Source of the DNA: Nitrososphaeraceae archaeon
GTDB taxonomy: Archaea; Thermoproteota; Nitrososphaeria; Nitrososphaerales; Nitrososphaeraceae
Assembly (NCBI GenBank): GCA_035297365.1
Contig: DATGZA010000033.1
Coordinates: forward strand, 1-10,864
Direction of reading: 5' to 3'
Length of the DNA: 10,864 nt
The position numbers were made by a program, and so were the translations under genes. Position 1 is the stretch's first letter; each line of letters opens with the position of its first letter. The notes under the pieces were generated by a model, which saw nothing but the letters and a program-made list of their open reading frames with translations, made no database searches and was not told where the DNA came from. Positions 2,509 to 10,864 of this stretch are shown in pieces.

Positions 2509-3627
2509 GTGTTAAATAAATATAATAAAATATTAATCATTTCTTTATGCTTGTCGTTATTACTTTCTACTCATATTTCATTAAAAAATGCATTTTCCAA
2601 AGATGATAATATTTTTGAATTGCCACTAGAAGAATATTACGACCCTAATGACTATATCGGTAAAAGCACTTCATCGCATAAAAGTGAAAACTCTGAAAGT
2701 CAAGATTCTAAAAGTCAACTTATGTCTTTTAAGGAAAAAAATGAACAGTTTGAAGATAAAAAAAATTCGTCTAATTTCAATATTGCAATTGTTGGTGATT
2801 GGGGTTGCACTAAAGATACTAAAAAAACAGTAGATTCTATTGAAGATCACAATCCAGTTATAGTCTTCAGTCTTGGAGATACATCCTATGGCACTGATAT
2901 GAATTGTTGGTTAGACATAGTTAAACCAATATCTGACAAAATGAAGTCAGTAATTGGTAATCATGATTACATGTCACCGATTATTTTCCAACAATATATG
3001 GAAAATTTTGGATTATCCGGGCAATATTACTCGTTTGATTACAAGAACATACATTTTCTAATGATGTCATCTGAATCTACATATAACGCTGGTGAGGAAG
3101 ACAGTTTCTCAGATGCTGAAGAAACAGAGCAATATGAATATGTTGATAAAGATTTGTCGCAGGCATCAAAAAATCCGGATATAAAGTGGATTATTGTTAT
3201 GACTCATAGACAGCAATATTCTTCACACTGTGGACTTCATGATTCGTGTGATCCAATAAAAAAATTGAGAGATACCTACCATCCCCTGTTTGAAAAATAT
3301 GGGGTTGATTTATTGTTTAGTGGACATGCCCATAATTATCAGAGAAGCTATCCTCTATCATATAATGAAAAAAATTCATCACAACCAATTATCAACGATA
3401 ATGGCAAAACTGAATACATATCCCCTAAAGGAATGTTTCAGATGGTTGTTGGCACTGGAGGTGTAAATTTCGATCGATTTTCTGACCAGCAACCATTTAT
3501 CGTATTTCAGCAAGATTCCAGCTATGGATTTTTGAATATCGATTTTCAAAAAGATGGAAATACGTTAATAGGTAAATACTATTCCAATGACGGAGAAGTG
3601 TTAGATGAATTCAAAATAATTAAATGA
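2509..3627 (+). CDS. Secreted purple acid phosphatase-like metallophosphoesterase (PAP1)
   Basis: GTG start, signal peptide ending NAFS, charged linker, then all five PAP motifs: GDWG, GDTSY, GNHD, VMTH, GHAH; C-terminal VVGTGG and YGFLNID. Confidence 0.93.
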   Translation: MLNKYNKILIISLCLSLLLSTHISLKNAFSKDDNIFELPLEEYYDPNDYIGKSTSSHKSENSESQDSKSQLMSFKEKNEQFEDKKNSSNFNIAIVGDWGCTKDTKKTVDSIEDHNPVIVFSLGDTSYGTDMNCWLDIVKPISDKMKSVIGNHDYMSPIIFQQYMENFGLSGQYYSFDYKNIHFLMMSSESTYNAGEEDSFSDAEETEQYEYVDKDLSQASKNPDIKWIIVMTHRQQYSSHCGLHDSCDPIKKLRDTYHPLFEKYGVDLLFSGHAHNYQRSYPLSYNEKNSSQPIINDNGKTEYISPKGMFQMVVGTGGVNFDRFSDQQPFIVFQQDSSYGFLNIDFQKDGNTLIGKYYSNDGEVLDEFKIIK

Positions 3628-3920
3628 GAAAAATAGTATTTTATTTCCCCTTGTATTTTGACAATTATGTTACCTGAAGCTTGGAATATGATAGTAGCAG
3701 AATCAAATCAAAATACTTGATTAGGATTTCTAAAAATAAGATTAATTTTTCTACCTCTTAAAGGTGACAGTCGTTACAACTATGAAAGATAAAAAATTGA
3801 TTTAATTTAAACACTTTTAACATCTAGTAATTTGATATTATCTCTACATCTTATATTATTAGAGATGGCCTCAAACTTTTTTCAATGAAGTTGTTATTTA
3901 ATTAAAGGTTAAAAATAATA

Positions 3921-3958
3921 TGATACAACCATGTATCTATAATAGGTTTATGATACAA
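3921..3958. promoter_or_regulatory. Two TGATACAA motifs 30 bp apart; the first lies in an inverted repeat GATACA-acca-TGTATC
   Basis: tgatacaaccatgtatct at 3921-3938 and tgatacaa at 3951-3958; the same 8-mer recurs in other spacers. Function inferred. Confidence 0.4.
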
Positions 3959-4780
3959 AGATTAATTTACTAAAATATATAATTGTATTATTTATTTTCC
4001 GTATCCAACAATTAAAAATTTGATTAAAAATTTTATACATATCAGTATAAGATTTACATATTTGTTTTCGGATTGATATGATAAATACAACCTAAAAATA
4101 TACTAATCAATAATTCAATGTTAAGTAACATAAATACTATTACGCTTTACAAATATGTAACCATAAATTACGTTGTTATAATTTATTTCTGGTTCTGATT
4201 TCATTATGCTATTTTCAACTAGGCTTTTTGCATGTGCTGTAGATTTGCATATTTCCCTAACTACCGTATTCAGTTCTATGCCATGATTATTTGATACTGA
4301 TCTTCTAATATCCCTCGAAACTATTTCATCTTTCTCTTTGTATATATTTTGATGCATCAATGGTTTGATATTTAATTTCTTTAGATCGTTTTTGCCTTTT
4401 TTCTAGGGTGTTAATATCCTATATGCACATCATAAATCACTTTTTCAACTAATATTTGGTTATTAGCTGTTCATTAGAATTTAAAAATTTGATTTGATTT
4501 CAATTGGAATTTCTCACAAATAGAAGCTGATATATTAGATATTTGCAATGAAGAGTTTTGTAAGTTAATAATTTCTAAACATTTTCTTATCCTATTTGGA
4601 TCAGCTTAATATTTCATATGACGTAACATTCGTTTTCACCATGCTACTACAGTCAAGTAAAAACTCGTAACAGGAGTTAAGTAATATTACATTTTTAATA
4701 ATTGTATTATATATATTAATTATCTAATATCTCTTGCTTAAACATCTCTTTATTACATATAAAAATACAGATATCTCGTC

Positions 4781-5797
4781 TCAAAGGTTATTAGATTTAT
4801 TATCTGGCCCATTATTTTCATTTGAAATGCTAAAATGATCTATTATGTTAATATTATCTGTACTAATATCTTTATAATTTGACACTGGATTTGCATAGAA
4901 AATTCCTTTCAATGACTTATCTTTTATATCAATATTTAGAAAACCAAAATTTTTATCATCTTGTTTTGAAACAAAAGATGATTGTTCATTAATTGCATAA
5001 TGAGATCTTCCTGCAGTACCACAAATAATGTAAATCACTCCATCATCATTGTTATAATCATTTGTATTTTTATTGAATACTAAAGGGTTAGAATTGTCAC
5101 CATTATTGTTATATTTTAGTGGAAAAGTTCTTTGGTAGTTATGGTTATCTCCACTAAATACTAGATCAACACCATATTTGTCAAATAATGGATGAAATAA
5201 ATCCCGGATAGAAGAATCTGATGGATGTTTTGAAGGAGAGGTATAAATTGGAATATGTTCTACAACGAATGTCCAGTCAATTTTCGGATTTTTAAAAGCA
5301 TTCTTTAGATCGTTTGCAATGAATTGATATTGATCTGATCCAGGACCATAATCGAGATAAGGATCGATAAAAACAAGATGAACATTATATAAATTAAAAG
5401 AATAATAGGTTTTCCCTAAATTAAGTGGATCCAAATATTCATTAATTACACCTATCTTACCACCTAGTGTATCACTATAATCATGGTCTCCCATCGCTAT
5501 CTTTAATTTTGATTTAAATGGTAAAATTTCATTAGACCAACAATCTGCGGACCCCTTGTAACTTAAATCACCAGCTGCAATTACAAGTTCAGGATTCTTA
5601 TTTTGGATATTTTGTGAGGTCTTTTTAGCGTCTTCATTACATCCCCAATCCGAGGCAATTGCTATGTTGAATGGCTTTTGTTTTTCGGTGAGTTTATTAC
5701 TTGGAGAAGGATCTTGAGCGTAAACAAGGTTACCACTAATTATTATCGAAGTAACTAACATTGTATATAGAAAATAAAATAAAACAATATATTTCAT
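4781..5797 (-). CDS. Secreted PAP-like metallophosphoesterase with variant metal ligands (PAP2)
   Basis: ATG start with GGTGA 8 nt upstream, signal peptide ending VYA|Q; motifs SDWG, GDLSY, GDHD (for GNHD), VVEH, GDNH (for GHxH). Confidence 0.93.
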   Translation of the reverse strand: MKYIVLFYFLYTMLVTSIIISGNLVYAQDPSPSNKLTEKQKPFNIAIASDWGCNEDAKKTSQNIQNKNPELVIAAGDLSYKGSADCWSNEILPFKSKLKIAMGDHDYSDTLGGKIGVINEYLDPLNLGKTYYSFNLYNVHLVFIDPYLDYGPGSDQYQFIANDLKNAFKNPKIDWTFVVEHIPIYTSPSKHPSDSSIRDLFHPLFDKYGVDLVFSGDNHNYQRTFPLKYNNNGDNSNPLVFNKNTNDYNNDDGVIYIICGTAGRSHYAINEQSSFVSKQDDKNFGFLNIDIKDKSLKGIFYANPVSNYKDISTDNINIIDHFSISNENNGPDNKSNNL

Positions 5798-5805
5798 CTA
5801 TTTTT

Positions 5806-5810
5806 TCACC
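5806..5810 (-). promoter_or_regulatory. Candidate Shine-Dalgarno GGTGA for PAP2
   Basis: Minus strand reads atGGTGAaaaaatagATG; a TATA-like TTTTATAA lies a short distance further upstream. Confidence 0.45.
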
Positions 5811-5960
5811 ATTTTGATAATCTTATTTATAAAATTGTATATGTTGAGTTTTTTTCAAAACATTAGGTAGAATTCTTTGAAAAGGGAATAATCCTTTATG
5901 CGTGGAATATTGTCTAATTTGCATTTATATAATAATTAAATACTAACAATAAATGTATTG

Positions 5961-6020
5961 TGATACAAGTACGTAACAATTAGCGAATATATTGATACAA
6001 GTACGTAACAATTAGTGAAT
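5961..6020. repeat. Direct repeat, 28 bp x2, 32-bp period, 1 mismatch
   Basis: TGATACAAGTACGTAACAATTAGcGAAT at 5961-5988 and TGATACAAGTACGTAACAATTAGtGAAT at 5993-6020. Confidence 0.95.
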
Positions 6021-6205
6021 TTTTATTTAAAATAACATGATAACAAATATATTCTTGTACTATTATTTTTTTTATCTAATTAAAATACATGTCTTTTTAT
6101 TGTGGAATATCTTTTACGTTTGAATTTAAAATATCCAAAGCCAATAAAGCATAGATATAATTATATTCCCATATATTGCTTTCATATTTTTTACATTATT
6201 TATTC

Positions 6206-6492
6206 TTGAGATTACATCTATCCAGCAGTGAGCACATACATGATGGAAAAGTACTACCAAAATTAGTTGAGAATATAACTATAAAACACATAAAGGAAGT
6301 AGATATCCCTATGGCAGACGGCTCATATGGCAGTATCAGTAATTTTCAATTTCTGTCATTTAAGGGAATCAAAGCAGCAATAAAAGTTAGAAAGAGTTCC
6401 AGATGTAGAAGGAAGACCAATCATTACCTTACAAACAACACTGAAAGATAAAGAAAAACATTTTGCAAGAAAGAAAAGATAGGGAAAGCTAA
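6206..6492 (+). pseudogene. IS5-family (IS903-like) transposase internal fragment
   Basis: SEHIHDGKVLPKLVENITIK...ADGSYGS..NFQFLSFKGIKAAIKVRKSSRCRRKTNHYL, then in another frame KKNILQERKDRES*. HD and ADG(A/S)Y motifs of the IS5 DDE core; N- and C-termini absent. Confidence 0.85.
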
Positions 6493-6552
6493 CTGTATAG
6501 GAACAAAATTATTAGATCCAAATCAGACGGTCAAGTATAATCTAAAAAGAAT

Positions 6553-6839
6553 ATGATGCTGATGAGGCATGTAGAAAAGGATTTACACAGGAACTATTTA
6601 GAAATCTTAGTTGTAAATGAGAAAGCCTAATGGAAAATGGTAAAATAGAAAATGGTAAAATAGAAAATAACATATACAAGATAGGAAAATGTTTTGTGCA
6701 TCTTATAAATATCAAGATAAAAATGCAGAATACTTACACTAAGGTAGTAATGGATCCTTCTTGTGTTTGGTATAAGATATATGAATATCTTACAGGAGAA
6801 AAAAATCCTAATGTAAAACTATCTAATGCGATTAAAACA
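6553..6839 (+). pseudogene. IS110-family transposase/recombinase N-terminal (DEDD RuvC-like) remnant
   Basis: 6553-6630 reads MMLMRHVEKDLHRNYLEILVVNEKA* (cf. VGxDLHK...AVVDExG); after a frameshift ENGKIENN...KVVMDPSCVWYKIYEYLTGEKNPNVKLSNAIKT (cf. VVMESs..WY..Y..L......V.LSNP.KT). Similarity ends before the KTDxxDA motif. Confidence 0.82.
6633..6668. repeat. 15-bp tandem duplication (2.4 copies) inside the IS110 remnant
   Basis: GAAAATGGTAAAATA GAAAATGGTAAAATA GAAAAT, giving ENGKI-ENGKI-EN. Confidence 0.92.
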
Positions 6840-6970
6840 ATATGTTATAAAATATATGCTATCTGTAATAACAAACTAACTGAAGATTATTTTGAAAAAT
6901 ATATCTTCTTTTATAATGTAATTGACTAAAGTCTTGATGAATTCAAATAAATAATAGTAAAATAGAAATA

Positions 6971-7981
6971 TTAAACAGATTTTTCTACAATAAATTTATC
7001 CAAAGGTTTTAATTGGTTGTTACTTTCGATTCCATAATATGTTAATTTTAGTTGTTCATCTGTGACATCAATATTCAAAAATCCGAAATGTGTGTTATCT
7101 TGTTTTGCAATATATTGTGGATGATCTAGTATTTCATAATGACTTTTTCCTCCTTCTCCCACAGTAACAAAAATTGGATAAGTATTCTTAAAAATATAGT
7201 CCTTCTGCAGATCTTGAGAATTCGTTCCTAATGATACTATAGGATTAGTAATACTGGATGGATTGTATTTTAATGGATATGTTCTTTCATATATATGATT
7301 ATGTCCTTGTATTACTAAATCAACACCATAGTTATCGAAAATAGTATGATATAACGAACGAAATTCTAATTCAGGTGGATGTTTAGATGTGGAAGTGTAT
7401 AACGGTTTGTGCAACATTACTATAATCCAGTCAAGTTTAGAATCTGTTGAACTGGTTTTTAAATCATTTATAACAAATTTATATTGTGCATCGTTTTTTG
7501 TCGGTTTAAGTTGTGTATCCATTACTAGAACATGTACATTTTTAACATTGAAAGAATAAAAGGGATTTTTCAATTTGTAATGGTTTTCATATTGTTGTTC
7601 TAATGTTTGTGACTGTTCTTCTGAAGAATCATGATTACCAATTGCTATTTTGGTAATACTGTCTAAAGGATTATCCTCATTGAACCAACAATTTCCATCA
7701 GTCTTATAACTTAAATCACCAGGAACTAGAAAAAGATCAGGATTTTTTTCTTTTATGATTTTAATATTATTATTTGCATCAGGCGAACATCCAAAATCAC
7801 TAGAACTAATAACATCAAATCCCTTATTAGTTAATTGCTGACTATATGAGCTTTGGAGGTTTATTACCGATATAAAAATTAAAAAAATGATTATGTGTTT
7901 AACATTATATTGTAAGTAGTTATAGATGATATGAGAATTATATATGAGAGGTCGATTATTTTCTTTTAAATTTTTAATCAA
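6971..7981 (-). CDS. Secreted PAP-like metallophosphoesterase (PAP3); start codon uncertain
   Basis: Motifs SDFG, GDLSY, GNHD, VMLH, GHNH; signal-like KHIIIFLIFISVINLQSSYS|Q begins 27 codons after the only available in-frame start (TTG 7981). Confidence 0.9.
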   Translation of the reverse strand: MIKNLKENNRPLIYNSHIIYNYLQYNVKHIIIFLIFISVINLQSSYSQQLTNKGFDVISSSDFGCSPDANNNIKIIKEKNPDLFLVPGDLSYKTDGNCWFNEDNPLDSITKIAIGNHDSSEEQSQTLEQQYENHYKLKNPFYSFNVKNVHVLVMDTQLKPTKNDAQYKFVINDLKTSSTDSKLDWIIVMLHKPLYTSTSKHPPELEFRSLYHTIFDNYGVDLVIQGHNHIYERTYPLKYNPSSITNPIVSLGTNSQDLQKDYIFKNTYPIFVTVGEGGKSHYEILDHPQYIAKQDNTHFGFLNIDVTDEQLKLTYYGIESNNQLKPLDKFIVEKSV

Positions 7982-9865: not shown

Positions 9866-10864
9866 TTATTTTATTCTATAAACAACACCCGATTTTTCTG
9901 ATTTTGATTGTTTTGTTCCTGATACCACATATAGGTTCCCATCTGGACCTTGCTTCAAGTCTGTAATAATACCAAAACCTTTTGCAAATAATATATCAGC
10001 AAACTCTGTATTATCTGTAGCTATTTTATCTTCCAGAACACCTTTTAAAAGCAGTGCAGTTCTATTGTCATTTAAATTAAAATGAAATATTTGCCCATCT
10101 GCAGATCCTACAAACATGTCATTTTCATATTCAGCTCCAAAGTTTTTGGAACTAAGAAATAATAGTGCAGTTGGAGCTATGGATTTATCCCATGTGAATT
10201 CAGGAGGGCTATAATGTCCTTTTCCTTCAAAATATACTAGGTCTTTAGGATAGTTATTTACAGTTACATATTCACCTTGCTTGCCCTCTGTTTGCAGTTT
10301 TTTACCTTCTTCATCAGCTCTCCAAATACCGAATATCTTATCAGAACCACTATTGAATCCTGGTTCTGCCAAATTAATTTCATCACCAAATTTGGGTCCA
10401 TTTTCTGTAACCCATAGTTTTTTCGTTACAGGATCGAAATCAATTCCAAAACTATTTTTTATTCCATAAGCATAATACAAGTTAAGAGGAAATTCACTTC
10501 CAAGTATTCCCCCACCCACGGGTTTACCGTCTTGTGTTATTCTTAGAACTCCAGCCCTTCCATCCACAGGTTTACCATCCTCATAATTTTGAGTCTTAGT
10601 TTTGTATACTTCTGATGGAATAGTATTTTGGAAATTTCCCACAGTAACATAAAGATTATTGTCTGGTCCTATATCTATTATTCCACCTATGTGTGCAGGA
10701 TCTGGAAAGGATGGAATACTTAACAATAATTTTGGATTAATAAGGACGTTATTCTTACTGTCCAAATCATATCTGTAAATTCGGTTCTCACAGTTTTGGG
10801 ATTTCCCTTTACCTTCACACTGGACAGCATACAAAAATACATAATGAGTAACATCGTTATTATT
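9866..10864 (-). CDS. PQQ-dependent sugar dehydrogenase (GSDH/soluble GDH-type beta-propeller), 5' end outside the window
   Basis: Frame is open to the right edge (NNNDVTHYVFLYAVQ...), so the TTG at 10834 is not the real start; motifs HIGG..IGPD..LY, YAYGIKNSFG..FDP, ENGP..GDEIN, APT, ITDL..GPDG.LYV. Confidence 0.9.
   Translation of the reverse strand, partial: NNNDVTHYVFLYAVQCEGKGKSQNCENRIYRYDLDSKNNVLINPKLLLSIPSFPDPAHIGGIIDIGPDNNLYVTVGNFQNTIPSEVYKTKTQNYEDGKPVDGRAGVLRITQDGKPVGGGILGSEFPLNLYYAYGIKNSFGIDFDPVTKKLWVTENGPKFGDEINLAEPGFNSGSDKIFGIWRADEEGKKLQTEGKQGEYVTVNNYPKDLVYFEGKGHYSPPEFTWDKSIAPTALLFLSSKNFGAEYENDMFVGSADGQIFHFNLNDNRTALLLKGVLEDKIATDNTEFADILFAKGFGIITDLKQGPDGNLYVVSGTKQSKSEKSGVVYRIK

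Follow-up and report, generated by a model that had tools for sequence, protein, structure and literature searches.

Which metal ions does an enzyme related to the purple acid phosphatases (PAPs) hold once two ligands of its second metal site have become aspartates? This question is raised by PAP2, the middle one of three phosphatase genes in a stretch of 10,864 nucleotides (the window) that makes up the start of contig DATGZA010000033.1 in the Nitrososphaeraceae archaeon assembly GCA_035297365.1. The Nitrososphaeraceae are soil ammonia-oxidising archaea. All three window paralogues belong to the calcineurin-like metallophosphoesterase family. PAP2 (4781-5797, 338 amino acids) is read from the reverse strand, as are all PAP2 features given below; its companions are two canonical paralogues, PAP1 (2509-3627, forward strand), assigned from the list of open reading frames (ORFs), Pfam and the paralogue alignment, and PAP3 (6971-7981, reverse strand). 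In the alignment of the three, identity to PAP1 is 35% for PAP2 and 33% for PAP3. A sequence-only reading of this DNA had proposed that the two aspartates mark a change of the divalent metal, M(II), to calcium, magnesium or manganese, perhaps with a higher pH optimum. We found that PAP2 belongs to a clade, here called the Asp/Glu/Asp clade, in which the aspartates are fixed under selection together with further changes around the same site, and we put the probability that the second metal site has been changed to favour a hard cation at roughly 0.58.

PAPs are defined by motifs in five blocks (PMC4436580, in part), and their M(II) ligands are termed an "invariant His2Asp1Asn1 set" in the available text of PMC4223295. 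We established residue equivalence from the alignment of the three paralogues and from a HMMER profile of the PAP2 clade aligned with solved plant PAPs. PAP1 carries GNHD (2956-2967) and GHAH (3322-3333), and PAP3 carries GNHD (7639-7628) and GHNH (7306-7295). The corresponding blocks of PAP2 are G-D-H-D (5480-5491), in which Asp104 (GAC, 5488-5486, within M-G-D-H-D) replaces the M(II)-ligand asparagine of GNH(D/E) and His105 is kept, and G-D-N-H (5141-5152), in which Asp217 (GAT, 5149-5147, within S-G-D-N-H) replaces the first M(II)-ligand histidine of GHxH and His219 (CAT, 5143-5141) is kept. Codons and alignment thus agree with the motif difference first noticed in the letters. In the HMMER alignment, Asp104 falls on the asparagine of GNHE, Asp217 on the first histidine of GHxH and residue 181 on the VxxH histidine, which confirms that the aspartates occupy M(II)-ligand positions. 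The other motifs had been described as kept, and they are: Asp50 of DxG (5648-5650), Asp77 (bridging) and Tyr80 (tyrosinate) of GDxxY (5558-5569), His181, the VxxH M(II) ligand in a Glu180-His181 pair (5255-5260), and His219. A further histidine, His191 (5225-5227), lies ten residues past that of VxxH and aligns opposite a histidine of the wheat PAP phytase. With five of the seven ligands present and the asparagine and one histidine replaced by Asp104 and Asp217, respectively, PAP2 is a PAP-fold metallophosphoesterase that fails the seven-ligand definition of PAPs and stands outside the PhoD family.

We next consider conservation in the best 120 of 700 proteins found at E <= 1e-5 by a word-indexed search (56-100% identical), which represent the clade, compared position by position with 149 other relatives. 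Asp104 and His105 are each present in all 120 clade members; Asp217 is found in 119, the remaining one having Glu, and His219 is again invariant. At the sequence level the complete set of Fe(III)-type ligands, Asp50, Asp77, Tyr80 and His219, is found in PAP2 and without exception in the 120 homologues, and His191 in 119 of them. The other relatives have Asn at the first site in 134 cases (Asp in 4) and His at the second in 146 (Asp in 3). Since Asp104 is found in every clade member and position 217 holds Asp in all but the one with Glu, the pair is more than chance or sequencing error, and the possibility that the substitutions are singletons is ruled out.

The sequence-only reading had spoken of two concerted changes. 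The two are indeed fixed together throughout the clade, but they are not the only ones: a glutamate at position 180, an inserted loop and the loss of His181 in many members come in addition. At position 180, 118 of the 120 clade members have Glu and the other two Gln, as opposed to a hydrophobic residue in the other 149 relatives (Phe 58, Tyr 22, Leu 17, Met 12). Position 181 is Ser in 68 members, His in 47 (including PAP2), Thr in 3 and Pro in 2, compared to His in 139 of the 149 relatives. His181 is paired with Gly216 (47 members) and Ser or Thr at 181 with Ser216 (70), with three exceptions in 120; such covariation would be expected if both residues line a single site. A clade-specific glycine-rich loop, S-D109-T110-x-G-G-x-x-G116 (5450-5476), comes immediately after GDH(D/E)Y. 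Its conserved residues are Asp109 (114 of 120), Thr110 (117), Gly112 (119), Gly113 (116) and Gly116 (117), and positions 112-116 are gapped in 75-103 of the 149 relatives. Defining as clade-specific any position at which one residue reaches at least 90% inside and at most 10% outside the clade, we found twelve: Asp104, Tyr107, Thr110, Gly116, Pro124, Leu125, Thr130, Pro146, Glu180, Ile197, Asp217 and Val254. Three of these lie in the loop after GDH, and the most sharply clade-specific ones are metal-ligand positions.

Decay had been argued against from the intact frame, and the substitution pattern leads to the same conclusion. Compared by the Nei-Gojobori method with four orthologues or paralogues (L020-L023, 90-66% identical), PAP2 gives ratios of nonsynonymous to synonymous substitution rates (dN/dS) of 0.22, 0.28, 0.23 and 0.21. 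The frame is uninterrupted, and purifying selection acts on it. An exhaustive search of representative proteins returned 9278 matches at E <= 0.001, of which the best 150 were examined. In a FastTree tree of 182 rows, comprising 16 paralogues from the same genome, 27 clade members and representatives (11 fragments dropped, four trait columns removed before tree building), the Asp/Glu/Asp clade is monophyletic (33 rows, support 100). A long-branch pair (P0261 and P0269) was flagged away from it. Its sister group is canonical save P0128, with a lone Asp at the first site. At least two further origins of the Asp/Asp pair lie outside the clade, in P0181 and P0176. P0202, sister to P0181, has the second Asp only, and a follow-up search with P0181 found 14 close relatives in which "ADHD ... 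GD(I/L)H" is fixed; in 151 genomes of the family, no sequence closer to P0181 than 52% identity was found. Parsimony over the 182 rows counts five gains of Asn to Asp and three of His to Asp or Glu, and in independent pairs both traits change in the same direction in two to three of three and in opposite directions in none. Lineages that combine GNH with GDxH (P0287-P0292, P0202, P0301, P0305, P0306, P0310 and P0311) are candidate intermediates toward the Asp/Asp state of the P0181 lineage, and in lineages other than the PAP2 clade the histidine replacement seems to precede that of the asparagine.

The tree also contains another variant clade of ten rows with support 99 (P0126, P0131, P0137, P0143, P0158, P0175, P0191, P0198, P0215 and P0267). 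Here the asparagine of GNH is replaced by Tyr, His, Glu, Phe or Leu and the histidine of VxxH by Tyr, Phe or Ser, and GHxH is kept, so that the same metal site is remodelled differently from that of the PAP2 clade.

These results suggest how PAP2 might work. It is predicted to be an active, exported phosphoesterase built on the PAP fold. As the full PAP set of Fe(III) ligands is kept, a tyrosinate-bound Fe(III) is expected at site 1, held by Asp50, the bridging Asp77, Tyr80 and His219. At site 2 the His2-Asp1-Asn1 set would be replaced by Asp77, Asp104 and Asp217 together with His181 (Ser in other members), with Glu180 adjacent. Such an oxygen-rich and more negative site should favour a hard cation and disfavour Zn2+ and Fe2+. 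The most likely ion would be Ca2+, as in CaA of PhoD, the Fe- and calcium-dependent phosphatase of Bacillus subtilis, and otherwise Mg2+ or Mn2+. The sequence-only reading had drawn the comparison with PhoD, and the available text of PMC4223295 agrees: CaA occupies the PAP M(II) position and is ligated by Asp only. As in PAPs and PhoD, hydrolysis may rely on a hydroxide that bridges the metals or is bound to Fe, and the role of the enzyme would be to free phosphate bound in organic esters outside the cell, in an oxic, neutral-to-alkaline soil where Ca2+ is plentiful. PAP2 thus probably uses a metal different from that of PAPs, for which a switch to calcium, magnesium or manganese is the best inference; metal identity, export, substrate and pH profile we infer in the same manner.

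Several observations weigh against a hard cation at site 2. The first concerns the ligands themselves, as Asp also ligates zinc, manganese and iron in many enzymes and carboxylates alone are no proof of calcium. In addition, His181 is kept in PAP2, which leaves its site less extreme than that of most clade members. The two replacements are also found apart. Among 122 proteins near P0181, 15 combine His to Asp with a retained Asn, which speaks against obligate linkage, and Asn to Asp alone occurs in P0128, P0252 and one of the same 122 proteins. A test of their coupling had only three to five independent contrasts, too small a number of events to reach significance (median p 0.5). The co-occurrence of the two aspartates in homologues therefore stands for the clade and fails as a general rule: the pair is fixed and selected in the PAP2 clade and recurrent elsewhere, and it is not obligately coupled. 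In fold, too, PAP2 is nearer to PAPs than to PhoD. An AlphaFold2 model built from 55 clade sequences (mean predicted local distance difference test score, pLDDT, 81.9) retrieved plant PAPs first in Foldseek (E 2e-17, template modelling score 0.68) and PhoD at rank 34 (E 1e-9). PAP2 has no match to the Pfam PhoD profile at E <= 0.01, nor does the clade profile reach PhoD (2YEQ) among the PDB sequences at E <= 0.01. According to this model, the scaffold is that of a PAP rather than of PhoD, as had been claimed from the motifs. A PhoX-family gene gives the organism another candidate alkaline phosphatase. Finally, there is only a hint of PAP2 transcription: RNA-library contigs (metatranscriptomes) from four studies overlap parts of the ORF, and one contig of 234 bases is identical to it, but contaminating DNA is a possible source of such contigs. 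Libraries X15-X18 have zero contigs on 4600-4787 or 5822-6000, a gap that carries no weight as evidence, and strand, ends and level are not readable from contigs.

The alternative that survives best, although we regard it as unlikely, is that PAP2 retains the metals of PAPs, Fe(III) together with zinc, manganese or Fe(II), and that only affinity or tuning is altered, so that the clade still functions as PAPs do. The extra carboxylates might only make a scarce transition metal bind more tightly or alter redox properties or pKa. This would agree with the retention in the clade of every Fe(III)-type ligand and of both auxiliary histidines, with His181 in PAP2 itself, and with the tolerance of the His to Asp change alone in several lineages that keep the Asn, a sign that the effect may be graded and not switch-like. 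An Asn to Asp change in the glycerophosphodiesterase GpdQ is also reported to raise metal affinity (no paper found). However, in 71 of the 120 clade members the site is left without its last nitrogen ligand, His181 being replaced by Ser or Thr with a gain of Ser216, and the resulting all-oxygen site suits Zn2+ or Fe2+ poorly. Furthermore, among structurally characterised sites made up of Asp alone, the closest one at this position holds Ca2+ (PMC4223295, available text).

It is more doubtful that the changes mainly concern substrate or reaction, directed at diesters, polymers or nucleotides, with the metal being secondary; this explanation overlaps with that of a hard cation. It could account for the clade-specific loop adjoining an active-site motif, and the N-terminal Laminin_G_3 domain that many members of the clade carry, the second copy of this genome being one, could bind a polymer. 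PhoD, moreover, is chiefly a diesterase according to the available text of PMC4223295. Yet Laminin_G fusions (PF13385) are also present in many relatives of the Asn/His type, indicating that fusion and Asp/Asp state are not linked, and the sharpest clade-specific positions are those of metal ligands. It is very improbable that the clade is non-catalytic, a binding or structural protein of the kind exemplified by the PAP-fold protein GAP50, as the changed positions became invariant metal-binding Asp and not random residues, Asp50, Asp77, Tyr80, His105 and His219 are found in 120 of 120 members and His191 in 119, dN/dS is 0.21-0.28, and PhoD is active with residues of the same kind (PMC4223295, available text).

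The hard-cation reading can be carried further, to a convergence of PAPs on PhoD with living intermediates and a trinuclear Fe-Ca-Ca alkaline phosphatase or diesterase on a PAP scaffold, serving soil ammonia-oxidising archaea as a substitute for PhoD. We consider this improbable as a whole. The series would lead from His2-Asp-Asn through His-Asp2-Asn (the lineages with GNH and GDxH) to His-Asp3 (PAP2, P0181 and P0176), and its last step would be an all-oxygen site with Glu180 and Ser181/Ser216; the loop with Asp109 and Thr110 might then form a second calcium site like CaB of PhoD.

In the host genome (2.52 Mb, 30.5% G+C, 97% complete), we found 16 PAP-like ORFs, the three of the window among them. 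Fourteen are of the Asn/His type and two of the Asp/Glu/Asp type. The second Asp/Glu/Asp copy (L098:8867-10537, forward strand, G000:C11) encodes 556 amino acids with the N-terminal Laminin_G_3 domain and a Metallophos_C tail. The PhoX-family ORF (L098:3762-5177, reverse strand; 43 bits against a cut-off of 24) lies 3.7 kb from it, with MgtC and CHRD-domain ORFs between the two. Another of the PAP-like ORFs, C91:40522-41778, has its ligand Tyr replaced by Phe and its last His by Gln and may be inactive. The Pfam PhoD profile (PF09423) found none in the host genome at E <= 0.001, with B. subtilis as a positive control, and none in 201 genomes sampled across the phylum; Alk_phosphatase (PhoA-type) was likewise absent from the host genome.

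As a proxy for membership of the clade we used E <= 1e-80 to PAP2, a score-based measure that splits the two types in the host's own genome. By this proxy the clade is present in 23 of 151 genomes of the family, namely 19 of 21 in genus g1, both genomes of g6 and one of seven in g17, and in none of 15 other genera. Patterns derived from the clade matched 285 stretches in bacteria and archaea (one genome per species), and the 78 loci kept all come from assemblies labelled Nitrososphaeraceae or Nitrososphaerales (or "Thaumarchaeota" or "Thermoproteota"). The PAP2 clade was found only in the Nitrososphaeraceae. In soil metagenome runs of seven studies, besides a possible source study, 56-70% of the sampled PAP2 words are present.

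Regarding the product itself, Pfam Metallophos (PF00149) matches residues 44-221 of PAP2 with 58.1 bits (gathering cut-off 21.5), and no NCBIfam family matches. According to the translation, residues 1-27 (5717-5797) form a hydrophobic segment ending in VYA and followed by a low-confidence linker, which makes this segment a probable signal peptide or membrane anchor. The AlphaFold2 model places a helix at residues 2-22 and has pLDDT below 50 at 21-39; gene callers annotated the database copies from Met13 (P0001, 326 amino acids). Cys53 and Cys86 (5540-5641) are present in all 120 clade members and in all three window paralogues and may form a disulfide. Together, the N-terminal segment and the invariant cysteine pair suggest that PAP2 is exported.

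AT-rich spacers of about 1.15 kb (3628-4780 and 5798-6970) lie on either side of PAP2. Their ORFs are all short and of low complexity (6176-6451 and 6630-6929) and are probably not genes. A gene pair is present twice on the forward strand (599-1135/1145-1435 and 8271-8855/8848-9186): the first gene of each encodes a double winged-helix regulator (HVO_0163 N-terminal helix-turn-helix plus HTH_24) and the second a small hydrophobic protein of 96-112 amino acids. The three phosphatase genes lie between these pairs and may be under their control. At the window edges, both on the reverse strand, are the start of a secreted protein (1-300), the visible part of which has no Pfam match, and a glucose/sorbosone dehydrogenase (GSDH) beta-propeller ORF (9866-10864) that continues past the right edge.

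A literature search that left subscription journals largely outside yielded neither an account of a PAP variant of this type nor one of PAP-like enzymes in these archaea, and the available part of PMC7603488 does not mention phosphoesterases. An M(II) set that is printed as invariant (PMC4223295, available text) is replaced under selection across a clade of hundreds of environmental sequences. The site that replaces it is of the kind that binds Ca2+ in PhoD, and related lineages hold partial versions of it. Such a natural series lends itself to the question of how, in binuclear hydrolases, metal choice and pH profile depend on the identity of the ligands. A second implication is that soil ammonia oxidisers may have a class of predicted extracellular phosphatases that has gone unrecognised; their genomes have up to 16 PAP-like genes and, in none of those sampled, PhoD. 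Enzymes of the PAP2 type would be missed where surveys of soil phosphorus cycling count phoD, phoX and phoA genes.

Within the genome, PAP2 is closest in kind to its canonical paralogues (PAP1, PAP3 and 12 others), with which it shares family, architecture, the cysteine pair and the N-terminal hydrophobic segment; these differ in retaining the canonical Asn and His (14 of the 16 copies), in having a hydrophobic residue 180 and in lacking the loop. Compared to the plant PAPs (kidney bean, sweet potato, lupin PPD1 and wheat PAPhy), PAP2 has Asp at two of the four M(II) ligands, and its clade adds Glu before the third ligand, itself Ser or Thr in most members, as well as the five-residue insertion after GDH. 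The N-terminal region of the plant enzymes has no sequence match in the PAP2 clade (HMMER; Pfam finds only Metallophos).

The comparison with PhoD of B. subtilis (PDB 2YEQ, PF09423) rests on printed residue numbers, motifs and fold-level matches. Its ligand motifs, cited in the sequence-only reading, are in print as "DDhe/d, DxH" (PMC10987575, available part), and D-H-(D/E) and D-x-H recur in PAP2 at what would be the corresponding blocks. PAP2 has Gly103 where the PhoD motif has the first Asp of DD. Both enzymes have a carboxylate-only or carboxylate-rich second metal site at the PAP M(II) position, and both are extracytoplasmic, in the case of PAP2 by prediction; the available text of PMC4223295 ties the use of Ca2+ by PhoD to this location. 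PAP2 retains Tyr and His at the Fe site, and Cys for Asp is described there as the sole difference of the PhoD Fe site from that of PAPs. Ligand mutants of PhoD reported in the same text include D207, D265, D266, N271, N272 and D436. The CaB ligands Asn271 and Asn272 follow Asp266 by five and six residues, the same spacing as from Asp104 to Asp109 and Thr110 in PAP2, and by this analogy the two loop residues would be the equivalents of the PhoD pair.
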